Below, in pieces: positions 41,958 to 56,255 of a stretch of DNA of 56,924 nt. The DNA comes from Paludibacter sp. GTDB lineage: Bacteria; Bacteroidota; Bacteroidia; Bacteroidales; Paludibacteraceae. Position 1 is the stretch's first letter. Each line of letters starts with the position of its first letter. Both the position numbers and the translations under genes were made by a program. The notes below the pieces were generated by a model. That model had not been told where the DNA came from. It ran no database searches and saw nothing but the letters and a program-made list of their open reading frames with translations. The DNA lies in assembly GCA_037144275.1 (NCBI GenBank), contig JBAWXD010000001.1:1-56924 (forward strand), in the 5' to 3' direction.

Positions 41958-43685
41958 TCAGTATTTTCTCAAGGAGAAAATAAAACTCAATCCGCCACCC
42001 GGAACGGTTTTAGCCGAAATAGTTCCTTTATGGAAAATAATTGCATTTTTCACAATAGCCAATCCTAAACCAGTTCCACCAACTTTGCGACTACGACCTT
42101 TATCCACACGATAAAAACGTTCGAATAGGCGGGCTAAATGTTCTTCGGAAACTCCTACACCATTATCACTGAAAGAGAAATAGACAAAATCTTCATCTTC
42201 GCGGTAACAGTTAATATCTATAGTTATTTTCTCACCTGCATAATTCAACGCATTATCCAACAGGTTTCTGAAAATGGAATATATGAGCGACCGGTTTCCC
42301 TGAATGCTTGTTTCGGATTGAAAGTTGGTCAAAATCGTACATTCTTTTTGTTCGATTTCCAGATGAACATCGTTCAACACATCCTGGATTACCTCCGAAA
42401 TATTGCAGGGTTCTTTATCAAACAACCGTTTGGCTTCGTCCATTTTATTCAGTGTGGAAATATCCTGAAGCAAATCACGTAAACGTTGTGCTTGCTGAAA
42501 CGAGCGCTCTACAAAGAACCGTTGACGCTCGGCGTCCATTTCAGGATTCTCCAGAATGCTTTCCATGTAGCCCAGAATGCTGCTTACCGGAGTTTTCAAC
42601 TCGTGCGAAATGTTTTGTGTCAGGTGTCTTTTAAGTTCGTTTTCGTGTTCCTGAACCGATATGTCGTTAATAGAAATTTCAAATGTTTTATCCTGAAAAA
42701 CAATACACTGTACGGCAAATACCCGACCACCTTTTTCAATGGTGAGCTTTTTACGTTTCATTTCATTGTTTTGCAGACTTTGGTCAATGAACTGATTTAT
42801 TTCTGAAAATTCGGGCAGACTGAAAATTTGATTGGAACTTTCGCTTTGCTGGTCGGAAAGAATATTACTGTACTGAATAAAGTGAGTATTTGCCAGAATT
42901 TCTTTTTTCTCAGTTGAAAAAATAGCCAGTCCTTCCTGTGAGATTTGCAGGTGTTTAATCAGTTTTTCACGCTCTTTGTTCAGTTGTTCCTTGGTTTCCA
43001 ACTGTAATTTATACAGTTTCACTATGTTTTTGCTGATTTCACCAAGCTCGTCGTTTGGGAATTCAATATCCGTATTGAAATACTCTTCCTTCTCTGCTTT
43101 TTGAATGAAAATACGCAGACGATCTATTGATTTGGTGAAATTTCGGGAAATAAAGTATAAAACAAAACCTGCAGCAATCAACACTAAAAGCATGAAATAC
43201 AGGAAGAAAGTATTGGCTTTCAGTGTGTTAATAAGACTCACATTGTATGGCAAAGCACTCCGCACATATCCTTTGGGAAAACGGTGGGCGAGATAATAAT
43301 AATCTTTTCCGGTAGAAACCGAATGGCGGATGGCTTTTCCGTTCGCATTATAATTGGCTAACTGAATTTCAGGGCGGTCGGCATGATTCTCCAGTTTCGT
43401 TCCTTTTTTTACAAACGAATCGAAGGTTACATTGCCGATGGAATCAATTACAGTTACACGCAAGGTACTGTCAGGGAATAATTTGACATAATCTTCCAGC
43501 ATTTCCCAGTTTGGATTACGCTCTTCAATAAACCGGTTGATACTGAAGTTATAAGTCGATAATTGCTGATCGAGTTGATCGGTACGGAATTCCTTTTCCC
43601 GTTCATACTGGAAGAAGCTGATAATGGCAAACATCAAAAAGAAGATGCCAAAGAAATAGAGAAAAACGCGGCGATTTAAAGTCAT
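41958..43685 (-). CDS. phoR: Sensor histidine kinase PhoR-like
   Basis: Two TM helices, ENHADRPEI cache motif, H-box SHELKTP, NLLDNA, FERFYRVDKGRSR..GGTGLGLAIVK. Confidence 0.85.
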   Translation of the reverse strand: MTLNRRVFLYFFGIFFLMFAIISFFQYEREKEFRTDQLDQQLSTYNFSINRFIEERNPNWEMLEDYVKLFPDSTLRVTVIDSIGNVTFDSFVKKGTKLENHADRPEIQLANYNANGKAIRHSVSTGKDYYYLAHRFPKGYVRSALPYNVSLINTLKANTFFLYFMLLVLIAAGFVLYFISRNFTKSIDRLRIFIQKAEKEEYFNTDIEFPNDELGEISKNIVKLYKLQLETKEQLNKEREKLIKHLQISQEGLAIFSTEKKEILANTHFIQYSNILSDQQSESSNQIFSLPEFSEINQFIDQSLQNNEMKRKKLTIEKGGRVFAVQCIVFQDKTFEISINDISVQEHENELKRHLTQNISHELKTPVSSILGYMESILENPEMDAERQRFFVERSFQQAQRLRDLLQDISTLNKMDEAKRLFDKEPCNISEVIQDVLNDVHLEIEQKECTILTNFQSETSIQGNRSLIYSIFRNLLDNALNYAGEKITIDINCYREDEDFVYFSFSDNGVGVSEEHLARLFERFYRVDKGRSRKVGGTGLGLAIVKNAIIFHKGTISAKTVPGGGLSFIFSLRKY

Positions 43686-43687
43686 AA

Positions 43688-43778
43688 GCCCCTAACCCCT
43701 AAAGGGGAATTTTAGTTAGTATTACTTGTTTATTTTTTTTTGCAACCACACCAAAGCCCTCTTTAAGGGGTTGGGGGC
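43688..43778. repeat. Inverted doublet of family A REP-like repeats
   Basis: GCCCCTAACCCCTAAAGGGGAAT (43688-43710) and AAAGCCCTCTTTAAGGGGTTGGGGGC (43753-43778). Confidence 0.8.
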
Positions 43779-43782
43779 ATTT

Positions 43783-44472
43783 TTATTCTTCAAAACAATA
43801 TCCATATCCCAATCGGGTGACGATGTTTTTTCCGTACTGTCCAATTTTTTTGCGCATACGGGTAATATTCACATCGATGGTTCGGTCGAGAACAATTACC
43901 TCGTCGCTCCATACACGGGTAAGCATTTCGTCGCGCGAGAAAACCCGGTTTTTGTTTTCCAGAAAAAGTTTAAGTATTTCGAACTCCTTTTTCGTAAACG
44001 GAACTTCAACTCCCTCAAGAATTACTTTTTTGTTTCCCAAATCCATTTCAAGTGATTCGTAAGTTAGTTTTTGGGGCGCTGTTTCAATTGTTTTTTTATT
44101 ATCCACCCGTCGGATTACTGCTTTGACTCGTGCCAATACTTCACGAATTGAAAAGGGTTTGGAAATATAATCGTCGGCACCAATATTAAAACCAGTCAGT
44201 CGGTCGGTTTCGGAATCTTTTGCAGTAAGGAAAATAACCGGAATAGAGGCTGTTTTAGGGTTTTCGCTCAATATGCGGGCCATTTTAAATCCGGATATTT
44301 CACCCATCATCACATCAAGCAGCATTAAGTTATAGACCGTTAGGTCTTTTTTCATCGCTTCTTCAGCCGAATAAGCCACATCTACTTGATAACCTTCGGT
44401 CTCAAGATTGAACTGCAAAATTTCACACAAATCTTCTTCGTCGTCGACGACTAGAATACGATACGAACTCAT
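43783..44472 (-). CDS. phoB: OmpR/PhoB-family response regulator
   Basis: ILVVDDE, LLDVMM, FLTAK, GADDYISKPFS, winged-helix RTIDVNITRMRKK..GYGY; pst/phoU context. Confidence 0.85.
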   Translation of the reverse strand: MSSYRILVVDDEEDLCEILQFNLETEGYQVDVAYSAEEAMKKDLTVYNLMLLDVMMGEISGFKMARILSENPKTASIPVIFLTAKDSETDRLTGFNIGADDYISKPFSIREVLARVKAVIRRVDNKKTIETAPQKLTYESLEMDLGNKKVILEGVEVPFTKKEFEILKLFLENKNRVFSRDEMLTRVWSDEVIVLDRTIDVNITRMRKKIGQYGKNIVTRLGYGYCFEE

Positions 44473-44519: not shown

Positions 44520-44576
44520 CAAAGTAACAAATCTCTTATTTCGGTTTTGTGTAATAACTGTTACAAAGATATGACA
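44520..44576 (-). promoter_or_regulatory. Pho-box promoter of phoB-phoR
   Basis: Minus-strand units TGTCATA (44576), TGTAACA (44565), TTACACA (44554), CGAAATA (44543); -7 TTACTTTG starts 16 nt after the last unit start (44527). Confidence 0.7.
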
Positions 44577-44606
44577 ATTTTTGAAATCTGTTGTAAATCA
44601 ACAATA

Positions 44607-44651
44607 AAATCACAAAAGAGGCAAATCCTCGATTTGCCTCTTTTGTGATTT
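44607..44651 (-). terminator. Terminator after phoU
   Basis: Perfect 21-bp inverted repeat AAATCACAAAAGAGGCAAATC-ctc-GATTTGCCTCTTTTGTGATTT. Confidence 0.8.
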
Positions 44652-44664
44652 AGGTATAAATTAG

Positions 44665-45330
44665 CTATTCTCTTGGAGAATGTTTCAATACTTTAGCATC
44701 AATGTAGAAGAAAATTTCTTCAGCAATATTGGCACAATGGTCACCAATACGTTCTAATCTTCTGAAAGTGCTGAATAAATGTAGACATTCAAAAGCTCTA
44801 TCAGGATTTTTCTGTATGTAATCAGCCACAATTCTAGCTGCACTTTTATTAATTTCATCCACCTGATAATCTTCACTGAAAATGGCTGATGCAATGTCAG
44901 ATTTCTCATTTTCAAAAGCTTCAAGTCCTTGGGTAAGCATTTTAGTTACCTGATCAATCATGAGTCTTAAGTTCGTTTCAGTTATGATTTCAGCATCTAA
45001 TATTACCGAAGGATTTGCAAGCAAAACACCTGATATCCCATATGCAAAGTCGGCGATACGTTCCAAATTAGAGTTAATCTTCAGTACTGCCAGTACAAAG
45101 CGCAAATCTACTGCAACTGGCTGATAAAGAGCAATAATATTTTCACATAACCGGTCAATTTTAAGTTCATAAGCATCCACTTTTTTCTCACGCATCGAAA
45201 CTTTCTTTGCCAACTCTTTGTCAAAAGTCAAAATAGCTTCTCCCGAATTTGAAACCTGAGAAATTACCAATTTCCACATATCAGTAACATCCTGTTTAAG
45301 AGCTACTAATTCTTGTTCTAAATGTATCAT
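44665..45330 (-). CDS. phoU: Phosphate signalling complex protein PhoU
   Basis: YQPVAVDLR, LERIAD, LERIGDHCANIAE. Confidence 0.95.
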   Translation of the reverse strand: MIHLEQELVALKQDVTDMWKLVISQVSNSGEAILTFDKELAKKVSMREKKVDAYELKIDRLCENIIALYQPVAVDLRFVLAVLKINSNLERIADFAYGISGVLLANPSVILDAEIITETNLRLMIDQVTKMLTQGLEAFENEKSDIASAIFSEDYQVDEINKSAARIVADYIQKNPDRAFECLHLFSTFRRLERIGDHCANIAEEIFFYIDAKVLKHSPRE

Positions 45331-45345
45331 ATATATAAGTCTTAA

Positions 45346-45519
45346 TTATTTTAGTAAGCTTTCTTCTTTTTCTTTAAGTTTTGTGTCGTCTTCAATTTCT
45401 GATTGATTCATAAAATTAACAACATCTTCTTTATCTTTCACATTTCGTTTAATCAGATAAAAAATTAATATTGCAGCGCAGACTAAAACAATAATTAAAA
45501 TAAACCAGTTAGTTTCCAT
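45346..45519 (-). CDS. 57-aa single-pass membrane peptide between pstB and phoU (below the ORF-track cut-off)
   Basis: METNWFILIIVLVCAAILIFYLIKRNVKDKEDVVNFMNQSEIEDDTKLKEKEESLLK*. ATG preceded by an A-rich tract; TM helix followed by a basic KR; stop 15 nt before the phoU ATG. Confidence 0.7.
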   Translation of the reverse strand: METNWFILIIVLVCAAILIFYLIKRNVKDKEDVVNFMNQSEIEDDTKLKEKEESLLK

Positions 45520-45626
45520 TGTATTTATATTTAAATGGTTAATATAATTTTAAGATAAATAGTCCAAATGTCGCTTTTCTTACTTGTTCTCAAAAAACAC
45601 TTTTCCATATTCATTCTCAACTGAAG

Positions 45627-45654
45627 AAAGTCCCCATTTGCCGATTTAGGGGGC
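45627..45654 (-). repeat. Family A REP-like repeat right after the pstB stop
   Basis: Reverse complement GCCCCCTAAATCGGCAAATGGGGACTTT; closely related to 41930-41957. Confidence 0.7.
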
Positions 45655-45655
45655 T

Positions 45656-46408
45656 TTATCCAAACCTACCGGTAACATAATTTTGAGTTGAATGTTCTTT
45701 TGGATTTGTAAAGATAGTGGTTGTTTTGTCAAACTCTATCAACTCACCCAAATAAAAATAAGCCGTTTTATCACTTACACGCGATGCTTGCTGCATATTG
45801 TGCGTTACAATAATAATGGTATAATCTTTTTTCAATTCATGAATCAGGTCTTCAATTTTGGCAGTAGAAATCGGGTCGAGTGCAGAAGCTGGTTCGTCCA
45901 TAAGCACCACTTTGGGTGATATAGCCAACGCACGCGCAATGCAAAGCCGTTGTTGCTGACCGCCCGAAAGTGCAAAAGCTGATTTATTCAGTTTGTCCTT
46001 CACTTCGTCCCACAGTGCCGCCGATTTGATTGACTCAATCACACGCTCTTCGACAAAGGTTTTATCTTTAATTCCATTCACCCGAAGACCATAAGCCACA
46101 TTTTCGAAAATAGATTTTGGAAACGGATTCGGTTTTTGAAACACCATACCCACTTCTTTGCGCAGTTCGTCTACATGTACGCTTGGAGCATAAATATCTT
46201 CGCCATCAATCAACACCGAACCTGTCATCCGGGTTCCCGGAATCAAATCGTTCATCCTGTTAAGCAGGCGGAGGAAAGTTGATTTTCCACAACCGGAAGG
46301 TCCGATCAGTGCCACCACTTCGTTTTTATTCACTTCAAAGTTGATGTTCTTCAGTGCGTGAAACTCACTGTAATAAAAATCAACGTTTTTTGCATCAATA
46401 GTCAGCAT
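45656..46408 (-). CDS. pstB: Phosphate ABC transporter ATPase
   Basis: [37 protein letters not shown], terminal GRFG. Confidence 0.97.
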
Positions 46409-46413
46409 CTTTT

Positions 46414-46476
46414 TATGTCTAATGTCTGAAGACTAATGTCAAAAGTATTTTGTCCTTTAACCTTTGTCTTTAGACC
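46414..46476. repeat. Nine-unit 7-bp-period array filling the pstA-pstB spacer
   Basis: TATGTCT AATGTCT GAAGACT AATGTCA AAAGTAT TTTGTCC TTTAACC TTTGTCT TTAGACC. Confidence 0.75.
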
Positions 46477-46480
46477 GATT

Positions 46481-47368
46481 TTAATTTGTTTTTACTTTTT
46501 TCGAGAAATAATTCCGTAAGAAATTGGCTAATAAATTTACCAATAACACAATCACAATTAATACCAATGCTGTTCCGTAAGCAATGCCCCGTGAGGCTTC
46601 AATATTGGTTCCACTCGTTGAAATGACATACAGGTGATATGGTAATGCCATTACCTGATTAAAAATACTCGTTGGCAGTTTCGGTAAAAAATAAGCTGCC
46701 ACCGTAAAGAGAATAGGAGCAGTTTCGCCTGACACCCGGCCAATGGACAAAATCAGTCCGGTAATGATATTCGGAAAAGCCATCGGCAAAATTACTTTTT
46801 GAATGGTTTGCAATTTGGTTGCACCTAATGCCAGACTTCCTTCACGATACGATTGTTCAATTGCCTTTAACGATTCTTCAGTTGTTCTGATCACCAAAGG
46901 TAATGAAAGTAATCCTAAGGTCAGCGAACCAGCCAGAATGGAATCACCAAATTTCATGGTGTTTACAAATAAGGCCATCCCGAAAAGACCGAAAACAACT
47001 GATGGCACGCCGCTCAGGTTATTGGTCATAATGCGAATAAATGTTGCTATTTTGCTTCCAGCGGCATATTCATTCATATAAATGCCGGACATAATACCAA
47101 TAGGAAAACTAAAGATACTACTTCCGACAACTAAACACATTGTTCCGACAATGGCAGGAAAAATTCCTCCTTTGGTCATTCCGTCTTCAGGTGCTTTGGT
47201 CAAAAAGTCCCAACTGATTACGCCAATTCCACGTATTACTATAAATCCGAGAATTATGAATAAAATAGCAACCACCGAATAGCTCATCAACTTGAAAATA
47301 GTGAATGCAATGGCTTGCGATCTACGCTTTTTTCGGTCGGTATTTTTGGCTTGTATTACTGGTGTCAT
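46481..47368 (-). CDS. pstA: Phosphate ABC transporter permease PstA
   Basis: GGIFPAIVGT, GVPSVVFGLFG, REGSLALGAT, RVSGETAP. Confidence 0.95.
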   Translation of the reverse strand: MTPVIQAKNTDRKKRRSQAIAFTIFKLMSYSVVAILFIILGFIVIRGIGVISWDFLTKAPEDGMTKGGIFPAIVGTMCLVVGSSIFSFPIGIMSGIYMNEYAAGSKIATFIRIMTNNLSGVPSVVFGLFGMALFVNTMKFGDSILAGSLTLGLLSLPLVIRTTEESLKAIEQSYREGSLALGATKLQTIQKVILPMAFPNIITGLILSIGRVSGETAPILFTVAAYFLPKLPTSIFNQVMALPYHLYVISTSGTNIEASRGIAYGTALVLIVIVLLVNLLANFLRNYFSKKVKTN

Positions 47369-47372
47369 TTTT

Positions 47373-47421
47373 TAAGTCTTATGTCTAATGTCAAACGACT
47401 TTTGTCTTTTGACCTTTGAAT
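47373..47421. repeat. Seven-unit 7-bp-period array filling the pstC-pstA spacer
   Basis: TAAGTCT TATGTCT AATGTCA AACGACT TTTGTCT TTTGACC TTTGAAT; homologous to 46414-46476. Confidence 0.75.
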
Positions 47422-48608
47422 TATTGATATTTCTTTTTTCCTATAAATTCAATACTGATGCTGATTATCATGGTGATAATAAACAGAATAACACCCAACA
47501 TAAACAAAGCCTGATAGTGGCCGCCACCTGCAGCAGTTTCACCAAGTTCGGCTGCAATAGTAGCCGGAATGGTTCGAACGGGTTCGAGTAAAGTATGGGG
47601 AATTACAGCTGCATTACCTGTTACCATCAATACTGCCATTGTTTCACCTATTGCACGACCAATTCCGAGGACGGCAGCCGAAGTGATTCCGGATTTTGAG
47701 TAAGGAATAATTACTTTATAAATGGTTTGCCAGTGTGTTGCTCCCAAAGCCAGACTGGCTTCCTTCATGGCACGTGGCACGGTGCGCATGGCATCTTCGG
47801 CCACGGTAATAATTGTAGGCAAGGCCATGATTCCCAGTACTACGCTTCCTGCCAAAGCAGTTTCACCAACAGGCAGATTGAATAATCTTTGTAGAAACGG
47901 AACAATAATAACCAGTCCGAAGAAACCATAAACTACTGAAGGAATTCCTGCTAATAATTCAATTATGGGTTTCAGAATATTGCGCACTTTCATAGAAGCA
48001 ATTTCTGCCAGATAAACTGCCACGGCAATACCGAAAGGCAATGAAAGTAAAATAGCTCCCAAGCTCACCCACAATGTCCCAAGTAAAAGTGGTAATAAAC
48101 CATATTGAGGCGAAGGTGAAGCGGTAGGATACCATTCTTTACCACCGAAAAAGTCGCCTGGGTGAAGGGTCTCGTGCTTTAATAATGTACCGTTAAAGTT
48201 CTTTTTGATATAAGATGTTGGAAGAAACAGGATGATTCCGGGATGTTTTGCAGTCAGTTCACTGGCTTTAGCAGGTATGTTTTCGAAGTTAGAACCAAGT
48301 TCTGCTTCGGTATAATATTTTGTCAGGTCGCTCAATCGAACCAGTTCAATGGGCTCTTTTTTTCCACCCACTTCGTTCCAGTTACTGATTTTGCCATCAA
48401 AAATTTCTTTGATTTCATAAGATGTTAAATGCTTAACCGGATTAGTTTTGTTTAATGCGAGTTCATAGCCTTCTTCAATTACCGGACTGGTAAATAAGCC
48501 GGAAGCTTCTTTAAACAGAAAGATAATAATCAGCAAAATGGTAATACTGGTTACGCTTCCACTAATGAGTAATGCACCTTCAACCAGCTTTTCAAAAAAA
48601 CGTTTCAC
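47421..48608 (-). CDS. pstC: Phosphate ABC transporter permease PstC with a PstS-like periplasmic insert (GTG start)
   Basis: ELLAGIPSVVYG, EASLALGAT, GRAIGETMAV; periplasmic segment similar to PstS. Confidence 0.95.
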   Translation of the reverse strand: MKRFFEKLVEGALLISGSVTSITILLIIIFLFKEASGLFTSPVIEEGYELALNKTNPVKHLTSYEIKEIFDGKISNWNEVGGKKEPIELVRLSDLTKYYTEAELGSNFENIPAKASELTAKHPGIILFLPTSYIKKNFNGTLLKHETLHPGDFFGGKEWYPTASPSPQYGLLPLLLGTLWVSLGAILLSLPFGIAVAVYLAEIASMKVRNILKPIIELLAGIPSVVYGFFGLVIIVPFLQRLFNLPVGETALAGSVVLGIMALPTIITVAEDAMRTVPRAMKEASLALGATHWQTIYKVIIPYSKSGITSAAVLGIGRAIGETMAVLMVTGNAAVIPHTLLEPVRTIPATIAAELGETAAGGGHYQALFMLGVILFIITMIISISIEFIGKKKYQ

Positions 48609-48632
48609 TCTTTTTTTGTTTTAAATTCAGTA

Positions 48633-48689
48633 CAAAGAAACGGTAATCGTATTAAATCTGTATTACGAAGATATTACAAAGATGTTACA
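48633..48689 (-). promoter_or_regulatory. Pho-box promoter of pstCAB-phoU
   Basis: Minus-strand units TGTAACA (48689), TGTAATA (48678), CGTAATA (48667), TTTAATA (48656); -7 TTTCTTTG starts at 48640 (16 nt). Confidence 0.75.
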
Positions 48690-48776
48690 TTAGTTGTATC
48701 TTAGTTGCCTCTATTTTTTCTTATATATATTGTATAGAATTCACTGAAATACAGGTCTTTTAGAGAATAAATTATT

Positions 48777-48833
48777 TGTAACAAAAATGTAACAGGTTTG
48801 ACAAAACACTGTAATCTAATCGAAGTTCCTTTG
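48777..48833 (+). promoter_or_regulatory. Pho-box promoter of porin-pstS
   Basis: TGTAACA (48777), TGTAACA (48788), TGACAAA (48799), TGTAATC (48810); -7 TTCCTTTG at 48826 (16 nt). Confidence 0.75.
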
Positions 48834-48894
48834 CAGCGTGAAAATGAAACAAAACTAAAAACAAATTCAAATTCAACAATTAAATTAAAACAAA

Positions 48895-50271
48895 ATGAAA
48901 TTAAAAAGTTTAGCAATTATCGCATTGGGTCTGATTTGTTCGACCGTTGCTTTCTCTCAAGAAAAAGTGGACTCATTGGATGTTCATGAACAGCGTATCT
49001 CAAACCTGGAAGATGGTTTGATTCAACTTAAAAAACTGAAATTCAGTGGATATGTTCAATCTGAATGGCAGTTATCGGACATTGATGTGAATGGTAAAGC
49101 TTCACAGGATATGAAAGTTGGTGGTGGGGCTAATGCAGCTGAAAACCCATCAGTTGGAAGTGTTACCCCAGCAGGTTCTTCTTTTAGTCGTTTTGGCGTA
49201 CGTCGCGGTCGTTTAAAAGCAACTTATTCCGATTTCGGTTGTACTGGTGTTGTTTACATTGACGCTACAGAAAAAGGTGTTATACTAAAAGAAGCCTATG
49301 CAAGTGCATTAGATCCTTGGGCTGGAGTTGTAACGCTTAAAGGTGGTATTTTTAATCGTCCTTTCGGATATGAGATTGAGTATTCTTCTTCTTCTCGCGA
49401 AAGTCCTGAACGCAGTCGTGTAATTCAGACTTTATTCCCAAGCGAACGTGATTTAGGTGGTATGATTACGTTGCAAGCTCCTAAAGGTACTCCATTAAGT
49501 GTTTTAAAATTGGACTTGGGTTTATTAGCCGGTAATGCAATTGGTACTGATACTAAAAGCCAGAAAGATTTAATTGCACACTTAACTTATGGTAATTCAA
49601 CCGGAGATATTAAATACGGAATTGGTGCTTCATATTATGGTGGTGTTATTTTCCAACCAACAAATGTAGTGTATACTATGGCAAACAACGTTTTTGTTGC
49701 AGATAGTACTAAAGGAAATAAAAACGGTTATGCAAAACGTCAATATATAGGATTTGATGGTCAATTTAGTATGGCAACTGTTGCAGGTTTGACAAATATT
49801 CGTGCTGAATATATTTTCGGTACACAACCAGGAAGTAGTTCAAGTACAAGTAGTCCAAGTTTAGATGTGAAACCTACAGGTTATGGAACTGCTCCAACAG
49901 CCACAGTTACTGCTGATACCTACCTACGTAAATTTGTTGGTGGATATGTACAATTATCACAGGATATAGCTGATACAAAACATACCTTGACAGTAAAATA
50001 TGACTGGTATGATCCAAATACAGATGTATCAGGAGATAACATTGGAACACCTAAAGCTGGAACTAATCAAATTGCAACTTCAAAAGCTGATATCGCTTAT
50101 TCAACACTTGGAATTGGGTATTTGTATCGTTTGAACAATAATATTAAATTTATGGTTTACTATGATATGCCTGTAAACGAAACTTCTGCAAAATTATTGA
50201 CAGCCGGATCGGACTACAGAACTAAATTAGCAGCAAACTTGTTGACAGTTCGGATGCAGGTTAAATTCTAA
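48895..50271 (+). CDS. Phosphate-selective (OprO/OprP-like) porin
   Basis: Signal peptide, short coiled coil, KFSGYVQ, FGVRRGRLK Arg ladder, RPFGYE..ERS, terminal QVKF; directly upstream of pstS. Confidence 0.75.
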   Translation: MKLKSLAIIALGLICSTVAFSQEKVDSLDVHEQRISNLEDGLIQLKKLKFSGYVQSEWQLSDIDVNGKASQDMKVGGGANAAENPSVGSVTPAGSSFSRFGVRRGRLKATYSDFGCTGVVYIDATEKGVILKEAYASALDPWAGVVTLKGGIFNRPFGYEIEYSSSSRESPERSRVIQTLFPSERDLGGMITLQAPKGTPLSVLKLDLGLLAGNAIGTDTKSQKDLIAHLTYGNSTGDIKYGIGASYYGGVIFQPTNVVYTMANNVFVADSTKGNKNGYAKRQYIGFDGQFSMATVAGLTNIRAEYIFGTQPGSSSSTSSPSLDVKPTGYGTAPTATVTADTYLRKFVGGYVQLSQDIADTKHTLTVKYDWYDPNTDVSGDNIGTPKAGTNQIATSKADIAYSTLGIGYLYRLNNNIKFMVYYDMPVNETSAKLLTAGSDYRTKLAANLLTVRMQVKF

Positions 50272-50293
50272 ACCACTAAGCTTTAAAGGGGAA
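50272..50293 (+). repeat. Degenerate family A repeat after the porin stop
   Basis: ACCACTAAGCTTTAAAGGGGAA. Confidence 0.5.
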
Positions 50294-50379
50294 TAAGAGG
50301 AAAAATAATTATAAATAACAAACAAATTTCGGGTTCGTTAGATGGCGTATCCGAAATAAATAAAATTAAAAAAAACAAA

Positions 50380-51192
50380 ATGAAAAAACTTATTTTATCG
50401 CTTATGATGGTTTGCTCAATTGCACCCTCATTTTATGCACAGAAAATTAAAGGAAGTGACACTGTATTGCCACTGGCTCAGAAAGAAGCGGAAGTTTATG
50501 GTAAGAAAACCGGTAAATCAGTAACCGTTATTGGTGGTGGTAGTGGGGTTGGTATTGCTGCTCTGCTCGAAGGTACAACTGAGATAGCTATGTCGTCACG
50601 CAAAATGAAATTCGACGAAAAAGCCAAATGTCAGGAAGCCGGTAAATCAATTGTTGAGAAAATCATAGCTTATGATGCATTAGCTATCATTGTAAATCCG
50701 GGAAACCCTGTAAGTAAATTAACACGTGCTCAATTAGACGGAATATTTACAGGTAAAATCACAAACTGGAAACAAGTAGGTGGTGAAGATTTGAAAATCA
50801 CACCTTATGCTCGTGAAACAAGCTCAGGTACTTACGATTTTATCAAAGAATATGTATTGTTGAACAAAAACTATATGAGTTCAATCTTAAGTATGCCCGC
50901 TACCGGAGCTATCGTTCAGTCGGTTAGCCAAACCAAAGGTGCAATCGGTTATGTAGGATTGGCTTATTTAAATAAATCAGTTAAAGCATTACACGTTTCA
51001 TTCGATGGTAAAAACTATATCGAACCAAATGAAGTAACGGCTAAAAACAAAACTTATCCAATTATTCGTCCATTGTTTTTCTACTACGAGAAATCAAAGG
51101 AAAAAAACTATTTAGCCCTTGTAAACTTCGTGCTTTCAGCCGAAGGTCAGGCAATTGTTGAAAAAGTGGGTTATGTGCCTTTAACAAAATAA
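50380..51192 (+). CDS. pstS: Phosphate-binding periplasmic protein
   Basis: IKGSDT, GGGSGVGI, AMSSR, RETSSGT, GAIGYVG, YPIIRPLFFY. Confidence 0.95.
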   Translation: MKKLILSLMMVCSIAPSFYAQKIKGSDTVLPLAQKEAEVYGKKTGKSVTVIGGGSGVGIAALLEGTTEIAMSSRKMKFDEKAKCQEAGKSIVEKIIAYDALAIIVNPGNPVSKLTRAQLDGIFTGKITNWKQVGGEDLKITPYARETSSGTYDFIKEYVLLNKNYMSSILSMPATGAIVQSVSQTKGAIGYVGLAYLNKSVKALHVSFDGKNYIEPNEVTAKNKTYPIIRPLFFYYEKSKEKNYLALVNFVLSAEGQAIVEKVGYVPLTK

Positions 51193-51195
51193 GTT

Positions 51196-51220
51196 GTCCC
51201 CTAACCCCCTAAAGGGGAAA
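51196..51220 (+). repeat. Family A REP-like repeat after the pstS stop
   Basis: GTCCCCTAACCCCCTAAAGGGGAAA. Confidence 0.8.
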
Positions 51221-51225
51221 GTAAG

Positions 51226-51257
51226 AACCGCTATCGAAATTTCGATAGCGGTTTTTT
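51226..51257 (+). terminator. Intrinsic terminator after pstS
   Basis: AACCGCTATCGAAATTTCGATAGCGGTT palindrome followed by a T-run. Confidence 0.8.
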
Positions 51258-51271
51258 CTTTCTGCTTGATT

Positions 51272-51328
51272 TGTAACACTTTATTCACATCTCTGTTCTA
51301 ATGTTGCAATATTGTAGTAGTTACTTTG
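51272..51328 (+). promoter_or_regulatory. Pho-box promoter of the phosphoesterase-glycosyltransferase operon
   Basis: TGTAACA (51272), ATTCACA (51283), TGTTCTA (51294), TGCAATA (51305); -7 TTACTTTG at 51321 (16 nt). Confidence 0.65.
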
Positions 51329-51346
51329 CAAACAAAAACTACAACA

Positions 51347-52201
51347 ATGCACAATCAACAGTTTTATCCTACTATTGTTATATCCGATGTTCATTTAGGT
51401 ACTGAACACTCCAAAACCCGTGAACTGGCTGACTTTCTGAAAACCGTGAATTGTAATACGCTTATTCTGAATGGCGACATCATTGATGGCTGGCATTTAC
51501 AAAAAGGCGGTAAAGGCAAGTGGAAAAAAGAACATACCGATTTTTTCAAAATCATCATGAAAATGATGGAAAACCACAACACCCGGGTAATTTATATCCG
51601 TGGTAATCACGATGATTTTATTGATCATATTGCTCCCTTTGAATTTGCCAACATCTCTATCGAAAAAGATTACGTGCATGAGCGAAACGGCAAACGCTAT
51701 TATATCGTGCATGGTGATATTTTTGATAATATCACTTCTAATATGGTTTGGCTGGCAAAATTAGGCGATGTAGGCTATACCTTTCTGCTTTGGCTGAACC
51801 GTTTGTATAATATCTATCGTACCAAAAAGGGTTTACCTTATTTCTCACTTTCGCAAAGCATCAAGCAAAAAGTAAAATCAGCCGTTTCCTATGTCTCCAA
51901 TTACGAAAATGAACTGGTGGCACTGGCTCGCGTGAAACATGCCGATGGAATTATTTGCGGACACATTCATCAGCCTGCCGACAAAATAATTGACGGCATT
52001 CATTATCTGAATTCGGGTGATTGGGTTGAAACCATGTCGGCATTGCTCGAACATGAAGATGGAAGTTGGGAAGTGTATATGCATAATGAACACATGGCTG
52101 CACAACCAGAACCTATCGAAGTGATCCATCTGATTCAACCAATTCCTGCCAAAGGGATGAAAGTGGCTTTCTCAAATAATTTCTTTAATCCATTTTTCTA
52201 A
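51347..52201 (+). CDS. plcP: PlcP-like Mn-dependent phospholipase C (LpxH-like metallophosphoesterase)
   Basis: SDVHLG, GDIIDGW, GNHD, HGD.FD, WLAKLGD..Y, YFSLSQSIKQKVKSAV, CGHIH, YLNSGDWVE. Start placed at ATG 51347, downstream of the -7 element. Confidence 0.75.
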   Translation: MHNQQFYPTIVISDVHLGTEHSKTRELADFLKTVNCNTLILNGDIIDGWHLQKGGKGKWKKEHTDFFKIIMKMMENHNTRVIYIRGNHDDFIDHIAPFEFANISIEKDYVHERNGKRYYIVHGDIFDNITSNMVWLAKLGDVGYTFLLWLNRLYNIYRTKKGLPYFSLSQSIKQKVKSAVSYVSNYENELVALARVKHADGIICGHIHQPADKIIDGIHYLNSGDWVETMSALLEHEDGSWEVYMHNEHMAAQPEPIEVIHLIQPIPAKGMKVAFSNNFFNPFF

Positions 52202-52206
52202 ATACT

Positions 52207-53307
52207 ATGAAGTACTTATTTGTAGTTCAGGGCGAAGGTCGCGGGCATTTTACGCAAACCCTTAGCATGAAAGCTCTGCTGGAGCGAAACGGTCACGAAG
52301 TGGTGGCTGTGATGGTGGGTTGTAGTCCAAGACGTACCTTACCCGGTTTTTTTACCGAAAAAATAAATGCTGAACTGATTCGGTTTCAGAGTCCGAATTT
52401 TATGCCTACGCCCAAAGGCAAAGGTTCTCCCTTGTTAGTGAGCATTCTTTATAATTTGCTGTTATTGCCGGTTTATATTCAGAGTGTGTTTAAAATCCGA
52501 CAAACTATCCGCGAAACACAAGCCGATGTGGTGGTCAATTTCTATGAATTGTTATGCGGAATAACATACGGGATTTTTAACCCGGAAATACCTATGATGA
52601 ATGTGGCTCATCAGTATTATTTTTTGACTCCCTCTTTCGAATATACAGGCAACAATTCATTTCAGTTTAAGTTATTGAACTTCTACTCAAGACTTACAGC
52701 CTGGAATGCCACAAAAATCATGGCACTTTCATTCAGGGAAGAACCCACAATGCGTTATGGCAAAATAGTCCTTGTTCCACCGCTGCTCCGAAATGAAGTG
52801 TTGAATAAAAAACCGACTCAGGGTGATTATATTCATGGTTATCTTCTCAATAATGGGTATGTAGATGAGCTGATTAACTGGAGTATCGATCATATAAATG
52901 AGCAACTTCATTTCTTTTGGGATAATATTGATGAGGATGAAGAAATATTGATTCCTAATCTGACGATGCATCAACTCAGTGATACGGTATTTCTTAATTA
53001 TATGGCAGGTTGCAAGGCTTATGCTACTACCGGAGGATTTGAATCGGTATGTGAAGCTATATACCTGCAGAAACCGGTATTGATGGTTCCAACTCATATT
53101 GAGCAGGAATGTAATGTGATTGATGCCATGCGTTCAAGTGTTGGAGTTTCGGCGTTGGAATTTGATTTAAATCTATTACTTGATTTTGTTCCAACTTACA
53201 CGAAATCAATGGAATTCAGGTACTGGATACACACAGCTGAAGCTTTATTTGTGTATGAACTAACCAGGATTTATCCACAAAATTCAGAAATTTTGGTCGC
53301 TTTATAA
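52207..53307 (+). CDS. GT-B glycosyltransferase, MJ1255/VC2487-like (Glyco_trans_1_3 / GT28-like)
   Basis: VQGEGRGH N-terminal motif, VVNFYE, AHQY, TGGFESVCEA..LQKP.LMVP..EQ.CN. Confidence 0.8.
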   Translation: MKYLFVVQGEGRGHFTQTLSMKALLERNGHEVVAVMVGCSPRRTLPGFFTEKINAELIRFQSPNFMPTPKGKGSPLLVSILYNLLLLPVYIQSVFKIRQTIRETQADVVVNFYELLCGITYGIFNPEIPMMNVAHQYYFLTPSFEYTGNNSFQFKLLNFYSRLTAWNATKIMALSFREEPTMRYGKIVLVPPLLRNEVLNKKPTQGDYIHGYLLNNGYVDELINWSIDHINEQLHFFWDNIDEDEEILIPNLTMHQLSDTVFLNYMAGCKAYATTGGFESVCEAIYLQKPVLMVPTHIEQECNVIDAMRSSVGVSALEFDLNLLLDFVPTYTKSMEFRYWIHTAEALFVYELTRIYPQNSEILVAL

Positions 53308-53344
53308 AAATACTCCTTTAATTTTGTATATTGCGTTTTTGTGG

Positions 53345-53374
53345 AAAAAAGCTGCCTGTGAAGGTGGCTTTTTT
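53345..53374 (+). terminator. Intrinsic terminator
   Basis: AAAAAAGCTGCCT-gtga-AGGTGGCTTTTTT. Confidence 0.75.
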
Positions 53375-53483
53375 GTTGAATTGATATTCTCTATTATTAC
53401 TTTGTTTAGCGTTTTTTTTATTGAAATCGAATCATTAGTTGTAATTAGTACATTATTGATATTTGTATAATAATGTTTAAAAA

Positions 53484-53540
53484 TGTAATAGGAATTTAAT
53501 GGATTGTAAATGTTATTGCAACGACTATTACATAATTTTG
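53484..53540 (+). promoter_or_regulatory. Candidate Pho-box promoter of the TBDR operon
   Basis: TGTAATA (53484), TTTAATG (53495), GTAAATG (53506), TGCAACG (53517); -7 TAATTTTG at 53533 (16 nt). Confidence 0.55.
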
Positions 53541-53561: not shown

Positions 53562-56255
53562 ATGAAAAGATATTTCTGTATTTTATTGTTGTTTGTCTTC
53601 TATATAAATTCTTATGCCGCAATTATTAAAGGGCATGTAATTGATAGCGACACACATGAATTTGTACCTGCTGTAATAGTCAGTATTCGAGGAACAAAAT
53701 TAGTGACTGTAGCTGATGCAAATGGAGAGTATATCTTTAATAATATTCCCAGGGGAACATATATTTTATCTGCCAGGATGGTGGGTTATAAATTTACTAT
53801 TAAAGAAGAGATAAGCCTGAAATCGGTTAAAGATGAATTTAATTACGACATCTATTTACGACCTGACTCAAGGGATTTATCCAATGTGGAAGTAAAAGGG
53901 ATTAAGAATAAAGAAACCGATGCCATGGCACGGTTGGATGAAAAGATGGCTTCAAATGTTATTAATATTATGTCTGCTAAGACTATCGAAGTGCTCCCTG
54001 ATTTAAATGTAGCCAATGTGATGCAACGCATTTCAGGAGTATCGATGGTGAAAAACAGTACAGGTAATAATACGGAAGCAATAATCAGGGGGATGCCTCC
54101 ACGTTACAGTAACACGCAGATTAATGGCTCCGCTGCTCCCAGTACAAGTGGTTCGGTTCGTTCTGTTCCATTGGATATTATTCCCTCAAACTTAGTAGGA
54201 AGAGTGGAAGTAACCAAGGCACTGACACCCGATCAGGAAGGAAATGGATTAGGAGGAACAGTAAATGTAGAAATGAAAGATGCTCCCGATAAGCCACTTT
54301 TTTCAGTGGACTTAGCTACAGGATATAATCAGTTTTTTTTCGACCATCAACTGACAACTTTTAATAGTAGTGTTGTTGTAATGAAAGATCCGGCTGAAAG
54401 AAACTTAAGTCAGTATCCTGATTATTCTTATCTGGCTAATCTTTCAGATTTTACCAGAGAAAATATGGTAATAAAACAAGTACAAGCTCCGCTTGATTTA
54501 AATGGGAGCTTTTCTTTTGGTCACAGATACTTCCATAATAAATTTGGTGTTTTGGTTTCGGCTACTGTAACTAATACCAGTCAGGGAAGTATTGATACAA
54601 ATTTCACTCCTGATTTGTCGGTTTATAATATTATATCCTATACTTCAAAAAACAGAAGACCCTATGATACACAGGCACTAAGAATTGGCTCAAATATCAA
54701 ACTGGATTATCAGATTGACGCTAAAAACAGAATTAGTCTATACAATTCATATTTTCAGATGCGGGAGACTAAAGCACGTAATGAATCTGATACAACTGCA
54801 GAGATTAATTGGGGAAGAGTAGGCTCAAATGATGTTACAAATATTGATATTTCAACTTTAAACAGCTTTAATCTTCAGGGACATCACGATTTGTCGAAAA
54901 AATTAGAACTAGACTGGACTCTTCTGTACTCTGTAGCCACATCGCAATCACCCGATTTAGTAACTGTAAATTATGTTCAGATTATTCATCCCACCGTACA
55001 ACCTGTTTATCTAAATTATTCAAGTTGTGTAACCCGTGAGTGGCAGCACAATACCGACGAAAACAAAGATGCTTATTTGAATATAAAATACAAACCCATT
55101 ATTTTCGACCATAATTTTGATTTTAAAGTGGGTGGAATGGCCCGGGTTAAATTCAGAAATAATTATGCTAACGAATACACCTTTGATGCTCCGATTGTCA
55201 ATCCTCCAAATCCAAATATTGAAACAGTTGATCTTACTCAAAACCGGAATGCCCAACAACGAAACGGGAATCCGATAAATAATCCGGGGAACTATAAAGC
55301 AACTGAAAATATTGAAGCTGTCTATGGACAGGTAAAAACAAACTTTGGAAAACTACAGGTTTTGACAGGGGTTCGCGTTGAATTTACTTACCAAACCAAT
55401 TATCACAGTGAAACTCAGAATGTATTAGTTCCGTTCACAACGAATAAATTCAGATACTTCGATGTACTTCCGAGTCTCCACCTGAATTATCAGTTGACAG
55501 ATAAACAAAACCTTCGGTTCTCAGCTTATCAGGGAATAAGCCGACCTAATTATACCGATTTGGTTGATTTTTACGCACAGGGTGTAAATGGTGGATCGCA
55601 GGGGAATCCATATTTAAATCATTCACGTGGGACTTGTTACGACGCAAGGTACGAAATGTACATAAACAAAGAAGAAATATTAACTGCCGGTGCTTTTTAT
55701 AAATACATTGAACATCCCATTGTAGATATGCTCGGAGCTAACAATCAAACCCGTCCTGTAAATTTACCAAATCCATGTACCAACTTTGGTTTCGAGTTAG
55801 TTGGGATTAAATATTTCGGAAATTTTGGAATTAGCTGTAATTACACTTTTACTTATTCCAGAATGGAATATACAAAAAATTATTACCCTTCGCCCGATGT
55901 GGTTGAAAAGAAGATAGAAATTATTCCCTTAGTGGGTCAGTCACCCCATATTATCAATGCAGCGCTTAATTACAGAGATGTGTCATGTGGGTTTAAATGC
56001 CAGCTTGTTTATACCATGCAGGGTGAAAACCTGAAAAGAATTGAATCGGATTATGGGGCAGATACCTATCAACGCACATTTCATGATTTAGGAGCTACTG
56101 CCGAAAAGACCTTGTTTAAAAATGGACTTTTGTATGCAAAAATTAATAACATATTAAACTCAAAAGTGGAGTATTATATAAAAAAATACACGGGTACACA
56201 AGAGAGTATATCAACAAGCATGAGTTTCCTGGTTGGATTAAAATATAATTTATAA
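53562..56255 (+). CDS. TonB-dependent receptor (N-terminal carboxypeptidase-regulatory-like domain, plug, barrel); not SusC-type
   Basis: Signal peptide from MKRYFC (ATG 53562); LPDLNVANVMQRISGVS..IRGM..RY plug; EVTKALTPD..G.GLGG.VN; terminal GLKYNL. Confidence 0.88.
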   Translation: MKRYFCILLLFVFYINSYAAIIKGHVIDSDTHEFVPAVIVSIRGTKLVTVADANGEYIFNNIPRGTYILSARMVGYKFTIKEEISLKSVKDEFNYDIYLRPDSRDLSNVEVKGIKNKETDAMARLDEKMASNVINIMSAKTIEVLPDLNVANVMQRISGVSMVKNSTGNNTEAIIRGMPPRYSNTQINGSAAPSTSGSVRSVPLDIIPSNLVGRVEVTKALTPDQEGNGLGGTVNVEMKDAPDKPLFSVDLATGYNQFFFDHQLTTFNSSVVVMKDPAERNLSQYPDYSYLANLSDFTRENMVIKQVQAPLDLNGSFSFGHRYFHNKFGVLVSATVTNTSQGSIDTNFTPDLSVYNIISYTSKNRRPYDTQALRIGSNIKLDYQIDAKNRISLYNSYFQMRETKARNESDTTAEINWGRVGSNDVTNIDISTLNSFNLQGHHDLSKKLELDWTLLYSVATSQSPDLVTVNYVQIIHPTVQPVYLNYSSCVTREWQHNTDENKDAYLNIKYKPIIFDHNFDFKVGGMARVKFRNNYANEYTFDAPIVNPPNPNIETVDLTQNRNAQQRNGNPINNPGNYKATENIEAVYGQVKTNFGKLQVLTGVRVEFTYQTNYHSETQNVLVPFTTNKFRYFDVLPSLHLNYQLTDKQNLRFSAYQGISRPNYTDLVDFYAQGVNGGSQGNPYLNHSRGTCYDARYEMYINKEEILTAGAFYKYIEHPIVDMLGANNQTRPVNLPNPCTNFGFELVGIKYFGNFGISCNYTFTYSRMEYTKNYYPSPDVVEKKIEIIPLVGQSPHIINAALNYRDVSCGFKCQLVYTMQGENLKRIESDYGADTYQRTFHDLGATAEKTLFKNGLLYAKINNILNSKVEYYIKKYTGTQESISTSMSFLVGLKYNL

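Follow-up and report, generated by a model that had tools for sequence, protein, structure and literature searches.

The question raised by the locus studied here is how its phosphate genes are placed under the control of the response regulator PhoB. The stretch of DNA analysed (hereafter the window) comprises 56,924 nt of Paludibacter sp. (GCA_037144275.1, contig JBAWXD010000001.1, positions 1-56,924 of the forward strand) and encodes the PhoR-PhoB pair and the Pst transporter together with a probable porin, a PlcP-like metallophosphoesterase, a glycosyltransferase (GT) and a TonB-dependent receptor (TBDR). Five of its promoters carry an array of short direct repeats, followed at a fixed distance by a -7 element, and we consider it highly probable (roughly 90%) that these arrays are Pho boxes at which phosphorylated PhoB (PhoB~P) brings the housekeeping holoenzyme to a promoter core that is itself weak.

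Five arrayed promoters with one phase

A preliminary description of this sequence had proposed that phoB, pstC, the porin gene, plcP and the TBDR gene are each preceded by four 7-mers at an exact 11-bp period, and every coordinate that it gave was reproduced (Table 1). The -7 element, nnnnTTTG, begins 16 nt after the start of the last unit, that is, after a 9-nt spacer, at all five sites; its first two bases are TT in four of the five cores and TA in that of the TBDR alone. The degeneracy of the inner units, which had likewise been remarked upon, is evident from their mismatches to TGTMAYA. TTG is absent from the -33 zone of all five sites, the -35/-33 position being occupied by the arrays, and the consensus sigma-ABfr promoter (TAnnTTTG at -7, TTTG at -33) was found at none of them. 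As would be expected of Pho boxes, a cognate PhoBR is encoded and an array precedes phoB itself. Four of the five sites are solid, while the TBDR site is weaker and its status is uncertain.

Terminator-like hairpins were observed directly 5' of the phoB, plcP and TBDR arrays (44607-44650, 51227-51258 and 53347-53376, respectively), and since such a hairpin sits just upstream, each of these three arrays would need its own promoter.

Scans of the whole genome

The scan with a position weight matrix that the preliminary description had called for was run on the window's own genome with a pooled 57-nt model of the five sites, in which units and core were scored and spacers were left unscored. In leave-one-out ranking over 8.3 million positions, in which the held-out site was counted together with every position that equalled or exceeded its score, pstC came 1st, phoB and the porin site both 3rd, plcP 9th and the TBDR site 45th; with a model derived from 88 promoters of other genomes only, the window sites ranked 1, 2, 3, 5 and 10 genome-wide, the TBDR site being the 10th. 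Outside the training region nine matches of at least 18 bits were obtained, eight of them intergenic, and the random matching that had been named as a danger was not borne out, as other gaps (8-39) gave 0-5 matches each and other periods (8-10 and 12-14) gave 0-2. The eight intergenic matches precede a second phoB gene, a metallophosphoesterase gene, ppk1-ppx, a TIGR01782-type TBDR gene, a GH1 glycosidase gene, a gene for a protein with a type IX secretion (T9SS) tail, an unannotated partial open reading frame (ORF) and a non-coding stretch; four of the eight are phosphate-linked by family, and the core is imperfect at the ppk and partial-ORF matches.

Conservation across the Bacteroidales

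Conservation was assessed at 80 pstC loci by choosing the best unit pair upstream of each gene without regard to the core and then reading the position of TTTG, which was taken to be in phase when it lay at 16+11k from the unit. Among regions with a strong pair, TTTG was in phase in 37 of 40 for pstC (78 regions), 30 of 33 for the porin gene (46 regions), 15 of 15 for phoB (34 regions) and 7 of 8 for pstS (57 regions); in the genus of genome G622 the figure for pstC was 24/25. Strong pairs were nearly absent before operon-internal genes (phoU 0/59, pstA 1/74, pstB 1/63), and the 9-nt spacer is of fixed length and variable sequence across orthologs. The arrays are thus both conserved and enriched before phosphate-starvation genes, as expected of Pho boxes. 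The strong-pair filter detected no arrays for plcP (0/8) or the TBDR (0/3), and four-unit scoring was needed there; with units trained without plcP, 18 of 24 plcP orthologs scored at least 8 at offset 16, compared with 0/24 at eight control offsets.

When the exact two-unit pattern was searched order-wide with a free gap (300 genomes), 64 matches were found, while the reversed pattern gave 5. Of the 62 matches outside the training set, 34 shared 3 of the 31 lengths that were possible, a concentration whose p-value is inflated by related genomes. The downstream ORF was scorable in 20 of 30 loci fetched from this search, and comprised four PHO4 transporters, two ppk, two Na/Pi cotransporters, one porin O/P, one OmpR-type regulator and ten others or unannotated. 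The exact TGTAAYA motif is a feature of the order; its validity across the phylum was not supported, as the exact pair showed weak phasing in genomes beyond the order, where 6 of 27 were in phase and the reversed pattern matched 10 times.

The fixed four-unit architecture of the preliminary description holds in the window and in close relatives, in which the distal four unit positions score 8.1, 8.3, 2.2 and 6.2 and the next two about -9, and gives way elsewhere to arrays of two to five units. A rule of four units throughout was accordingly discarded: in the genus of G622 the pstS promoter reaches the four-unit threshold in 5/26 cases and has a good proximal pair in 25/26, and in Bacteroides pstS usually has two units and pstC five. 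What stays constant is that the proximal unit keeps its 16-nt phase, whereas the number of units varies.

Correspondence with Bacteroides experiments

PhoB of B. fragilis shifts a 512-bp pstC promoter fragment, and without PhoB the expression of pstC falls 428-fold and that of pstS 103-fold (PMC3547664; this and the fold values given below are from the available part of that paper). Both primers of the electrophoretic mobility shift assay (EMSA) have exact matches in sequence L239 of genome G754, of which 1.2 Mb was scored, and there they span 512 bp, the length of the PhoB-shifted probe. Within this stretch a five-unit array with TTTCTTTG faces pstC and a two-unit array with TTTATTTG faces pstS, both at 16. 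The available part of the B. fragilis paper defines no motif, phase or start site, 'pho box' occurring once in it and 'consensus' never.

A model built from the window alone gave five matches at gap 16 in the 1.2 Mb of G754, one of them before an unannotated gene, as compared to 0-3 at other gaps. Arrays in this genome precede phoB, a PHO4 permease gene (BF3715, -52 in the mutant), one ppk gene (BF2645, +24), a GT4 operon with the next small gene (BF3412-3410, 197-555x) and a SusC-phosphohydrolase operon (BF3183-3186, 108-745x); a weak array precedes the orthologs of plcP and its GT gene (67% and 49% identical to those of the window; BF3174-3173, 1940x and 2762x). The PHO4 and plcP regions were scored apart from the intergenic-filtered promoter ranking. 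By function and order, the arrayed genes match genes reported to be PhoB-dependent or induced 24- to 2762-fold, and the other ppk gene of G754 (BF3714, PhoB-independent) has no array match. A two-unit phased promoter was also noted before the gene of a DUF5690 membrane protein in G754 (L241:138-1475, minus strand), which is a candidate member of the regulon.

In B. thetaiotaomicron, transcription of pstS starts 2 nt beyond the phased TTTATTTG (table of PMC7366714, in its available part; the same letters occur in L173). This start-site table stems from rich medium, where PhoB promoters should be quiet. A single-unit search of the 2020 table was abandoned as uninformative, TTTG mostly overlapping the unit in the first 30 of 48 and the first 30 of 123 rows, and the part examined of the 2024 atlas of this species (PMC10994844) held no matching rows and no phosphate-limited condition.

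A probably weakened -7 element

Upstream of genes in the window's genome TAnnTTTG is strand-enriched (935 vs 455), whereas TTnnTTTG is not (423 sense vs 530 antisense), and in the B. thetaiotaomicron start-site rows three TA words occur 2607 times against 378 for their TT counterparts, counted at any position in the row. The TT core was nevertheless recurrent at arrayed promoters: 54 of the 64 close ones have it, as do 9 of the 24 distant ones. In the genus of G622, where the count was made over promoters whose proximal pair is good, it is present in 23/24 for plcP, 25/25 for pstC and 22/25 for pstS. Its repeated occurrence, before different genes and in two genera, suggests that it is under selection. 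The proposal that the core is always TT was dropped in view of the distant promoters and of CA, GA, GT and TA variants in G754; the weakening is usually an A-to-T change at -11, sometimes lies at -12 and is sometimes absent. The A at -11 nucleates melting in sigma70 promoters, and a TT core would be expected to confer low basal activity.

Comparison with known systems

Of the sources cited in this section, PMC1906773, PMC3348028, PMC4415409, PMC12641261 and PMC7366714 are quoted from their available parts. The nearest parallel is the E. coli Pho box, which likewise consists of 7-bp units at an 11-bp period lying over the -35 region, its proximal TG 16 nt from a -10-type hexamer. In E. coli K-12 we found the proximal unit 16 nt before TATAGT at phoA and before TATTTT at pstS, and pstS has four units of which the third is degenerate (TTACATA). 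Published work places the Pho box 10 bp upstream of the -10 element (PMC1906773), has PhoB sites overlap the -35 element (PMC3348028) and describes 11-nt PhoB units with contact between PhoB and sigma70 (PMC4415409). The targets pst, phoB and porins are shared, while plcP-GT, SusC/TBDR loci and PHO4 are among the targets here. The unit is TGTCAT in E. coli and TGTAAYA here, and E. coli phoA and pstS keep TA, in contrast to the Bacteroidota core nnnnTTTG with, usually, T at the -11 equivalent.

TATCTT is treated as the -10 element of B. thetaiotaomicron in PMC12641261, and the start-site rows place its T near -12; on this register the -7 element begins with a T equivalent to -12, and the -33 zone falls under the second unit counted from the core. 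This unit is the most degenerate one (a mean of 2.2 bits vs 6-8), which would fit a use shared with sigma region 4. Relative to the Bacteroidota housekeeping promoter, TTTG-N19-21-TAnnTTTG (sigma-ABfr, PMC7366714), the arrayed promoters retain the TTTG of the -7 element and differ in the missing -33 TTG and, in four of the five, in T as the second base.

The B. fragilis PhoRB system has a PhoB of the same orthologous family (NF053854), the same divergent pstC/pstS layout and, as outlined above, arrays in the shifted probe. In F. johnsoniae, depletion of inorganic phosphate (Pi) induces PlcP, a glycosyltransferase and TonB-dependent transporters of the same Pfam set, and the phoBR operon contains an oprP gene (PMC8115612); the main text of that paper is without the terms 'pho box' and 'motif'. 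A literature search that excluded subscription journals and regulon databases found no paper in which a PhoB box is defined for the Bacteroidales, or in which the phase of such a box or the TT core is described.

Proposed mechanism

The identification of the arrays as Pho boxes is backed by the E. coli-like spacing, by the arrays in the fragment shifted by B. fragilis PhoB and by the loss of pstC and pstS expression without PhoB, and the further suggestion of the preliminary description, that they replace the -33 element at weak, activator-dependent promoters, agrees with the missing -33 TTG and the TT cores. Under phosphate limitation PhoR would phosphorylate PhoB, dimers of which would then occupy the TGTAAYA units at their 11-bp phase, cooperatively and in head-to-tail order. 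The proximal dimer would then replace the -33 element and recruit the housekeeping sigma holoenzyme to the weak core, as in E. coli, distal units would tune affinity, and transcription in Paludibacter would be expected to start about 4 nt after TTTG. Because the geometry equals that of E. coli phoA and pstS, class II activation over the -35/-33 position would be a known mechanism, and contact of PhoB with sigma region 4 is suggested by the same analogy. As an array precedes phoB, positive autoregulation is predicted.

Units that lie over a start site may repress. At the Na/Pi transporter gene BF4351 (-101, PhoB-dependent, in the available part of PMC3547664) the array extends from within a consensus TA core across the mapped start, an arrangement that looks like a repression geometry. 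At Na/Pi cotransporter promoters (L257 and L258) and in L040 and L041, a candidate repression geometry was again seen: in G629 and G754 the units overlap both the core and the start site, and in two other genomes they precede a consensus TA core with a phase shifted by 4 nt. No array overlapping a start site was found in a search of the window's genome. A broader positional code is conceivable and is put forward tentatively: in the Bacteroidales, in-phase units over -33, with a core selected for the lack of A(-11) or T(-12), would block firing independent of PhoB~P, and units at the start site would repress. In this lineage the regulon would further extend to an undescribed structured small RNA and to a PhoB paralog that has Glu instead of the phosphoacceptor Asp and might modulate the response.

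Evidence against and alternative explanations

Several observations weigh against the reading of the arrays as PhoB-activated Pho boxes. Thirty-eight of the 78 pstC regions lack a strong pair, these being regions that were not each inspected and some of which belong to pstC genes inside porin-pstS-pstC operons, and some order-wide matches precede genes without a phosphate link. The BF gene numbers were matched to G754 by function and gene order, not by sequence. The TBDR-acid phosphatase operon (BF4539-4541, 317-892x) has a weak array with a unit score of 7.1, the plcP units of G754 score 3, -1 and 6, and phnX-phnW, induced 33-40x, is without an array, the adjoining one facing a divergent gene that is unlisted as induced in the available part of the B. 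fragilis paper. The rule for predicting the regulon that the preliminary description had offered is therefore good but incomplete, missing phnX-phnW and scoring some induced operons weakly. In the available part of the start-site table of B. thetaiotaomicron, transcription of pstS begins 3 nt earlier than is usual, and that of pstC begins 113 nt before the gene, away from the phased core.

Chance matching is credible for the TBDR site alone, where we regard it as improbable yet deserving of serious weight. The mismatches of this site and its leave-one-out rank are the poorest of the five, the array is absent upstream of the closest ortholog (89% identical), intergenic DNA of this genome is 70% A+T, and an in-frame ATG at 53499 lies within the array, the likelier start being 53562. 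These points are countered by its 10th place with the other-genome model, by a homolog at 35% identity that has two good units in phase, and by the induction, on Pi depletion, of TBDRs of the same domain make-up in F. johnsoniae (PMC8115612).

It is unlikely that PhoB binds the arrays while the TT element is not the working core, or that activation is not of class II (anti-silencing, or use of another start). The rich-medium pstC start of B. thetaiotaomicron and the lack of strand enrichment of TTnnTTTG speak for such an arrangement; differential RNA sequencing in rich medium would, however, be expected to find PhoB promoters quiet, and TTTG stands exactly at +16 despite a freely varying 9-nt spacer, at the same offset as in E. 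coli. Moreover, TT cores occur at the mapped B. thetaiotaomicron starts BT_0571 and BT_0653, and the pstS start of that species follows just after the phased core.

More doubtful still is a reader other than the adjacent PhoB, be it another OmpR-family regulator or mainly the paralog PhoB2. The genome encodes eight Trans_reg_C (OmpR-type DNA-binding) domains, the recognition helix of PhoB2 is nearly identical and some order-wide matches precede non-phosphate genes, but among regulator genes of the window's genome high-scoring arrays are carried by the two phoB genes only, PhoB2 was found in just 2/60 relatives as against a far wider occurrence of the arrays, and it is PhoB that shifts the arrayed B. 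fragilis fragment, pstC and pstS being silenced when it is lost. As an account of the arrays overall, a chance origin in AT-rich intergenic DNA is negligible, given that the four sites besides that of the TBDR stand between 1st and 9th among 8.3 million positions and are shared by dozens of genomes.

Gene content of the window and further arrayed loci

The features of the window are collected in Table 1. PhoB and PhoR score above the Bacteroides equivalog cut-offs, and PstSCAB-PhoU above their TIGRFAM cut-offs. The porin label is based on Atlas clusters named Porin O/P (score 0.98-0.99, the family being present on 26-44% of members), and the protein had no Pfam match and no sequence match in the PDB. 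The name PlcP for the LpxH-like metallophosphoesterase, for which a PDB sequence search was without result, is suggested by family and context (PMC4796936, available part). The nearest named relatives of pstC are mostly from Paludibacter or Bacteroidales metagenome-assembled genomes. A short repeat resembling repetitive extragenic palindromic (REP) elements, with C-run and G-run arms, was seen at 43689-43712 (after the 5' neighbour of phoR) and at 51199-51220 (after pstS).

Table 1. Arrayed promoters and genes of the window; mismatches are to TGTMAYA, unit by unit
Feature	Position	Strand	Last unit/-7 start	Mismatches	Description or basis
phoB promoter	44520..44576	-	44543/44527	0,0,2,2	Units TGTCATA, TGTAACA, TTACACA, CGAAATA, with TTACTTTG
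pstC promoter	48633..48689	-	48656/48640	0,0,1,1	Four units with TTTCTTTG
porin-pstS promoter	48777..48833	+	48810/48826	0,0,2,1	Four units with TTCCTTTG
plcP-like/glycosyltransferase promoter	51272..51328	+	51305/51321	0,2,2,1	Four units, inner two degenerate, with TTACTTTG
TBDR promoter	53484..53540	+	53517/53533	0,2,4,2	Weakest site; degenerate four-unit array with consensus TAATTTTG
phoR, sensor kinase	41958..43685	-			NF053855, 807.5 bits (cut-off 500)
phoB, response regulator	43783..44472	-			NF053854, 360.4 bits (cut-off 270)
phoU	44665..45330	-			TIGR02135
pstB	45656..46408	-			TIGR00972
pstA	46481..47368	-			TIGR00974
pstC	47421..48608	-			TIGR02138
Probable phosphate-selective porin (O/P-like)	48895..50271	+			Atlas clusters
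pstS	50380..51192	+			TIGR02136
LpxH-like metallophosphoesterase (putatively PlcP-like)	51347..52201	+			PF00149, PF12850, Atlas
Glycosyltransferase	52207..53307	+			PF13528
TBDR	53562..56255	+			PF00593, PF14905, PF13715, PF07715; TIGR01782 below cut-off

Elsewhere in this genome a second phosphate cluster (L012:1-5242; G000:C152) holds a TBDR, a metallophosphoesterase and a divergent ppk1-ppx, each with arrays, that of ppk being long with an imperfect core. The GH1 glycosidase has a strong phased array (L013:4582-4638, plus strand; G000:C111), found also in 2/3 orthologs scanned, and is a possible partner of glycolipid remodelling.

A Pho-phased promoter was also observed to read into a non-coding stretch of about 165 nt (L011:1787-2012, plus strand; G000:C60), whose fold (z -2.6) comprises a long stem and a terminator. 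An 85-nt RNA core and the phased promoter are kept in five relatives among 101 genus genomes, with two-sided change in 3 of 29 predicted pairs; the small ORF of the candidate is broken in two relatives. The stretch had no Rfam match at gathering score and was not found in 150 genomes of the order; it is a candidate for a PhoB-induced small RNA or for the leader of a conserved 88-aa ORF.

The same region encodes PhoB2 (L011:3209-3892, minus strand; G000:C60), a paralog that is 47% identical, with Glu replacing the phosphoacceptor Asp and an altered acidic pocket. Its gene has its own Pho array and precedes a gene for a patatin-like phospholipase.

Significance

The mechanism itself would not surprise a specialist, since this kind of system is already known; what is added here is the tie to the EMSA probe and the microarray, the TT statistics, the range of two to five units and the repression geometry. 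PhoB affects the survival of B. fragilis in abscesses, and with a rule of sequence and phase the probable direct targets can be told from the indirect ones within the 585 genes reported for the regulon; the rule also predicts the sign of regulation and is usable in uncultured genomes. A simple handle on the activation of the unusual Bacteroidota housekeeping sigma is offered by the A-to-T change that is conserved in the core, which also suggests a means of obtaining tight phosphate-responsive promoters for the engineering of gut microbes.

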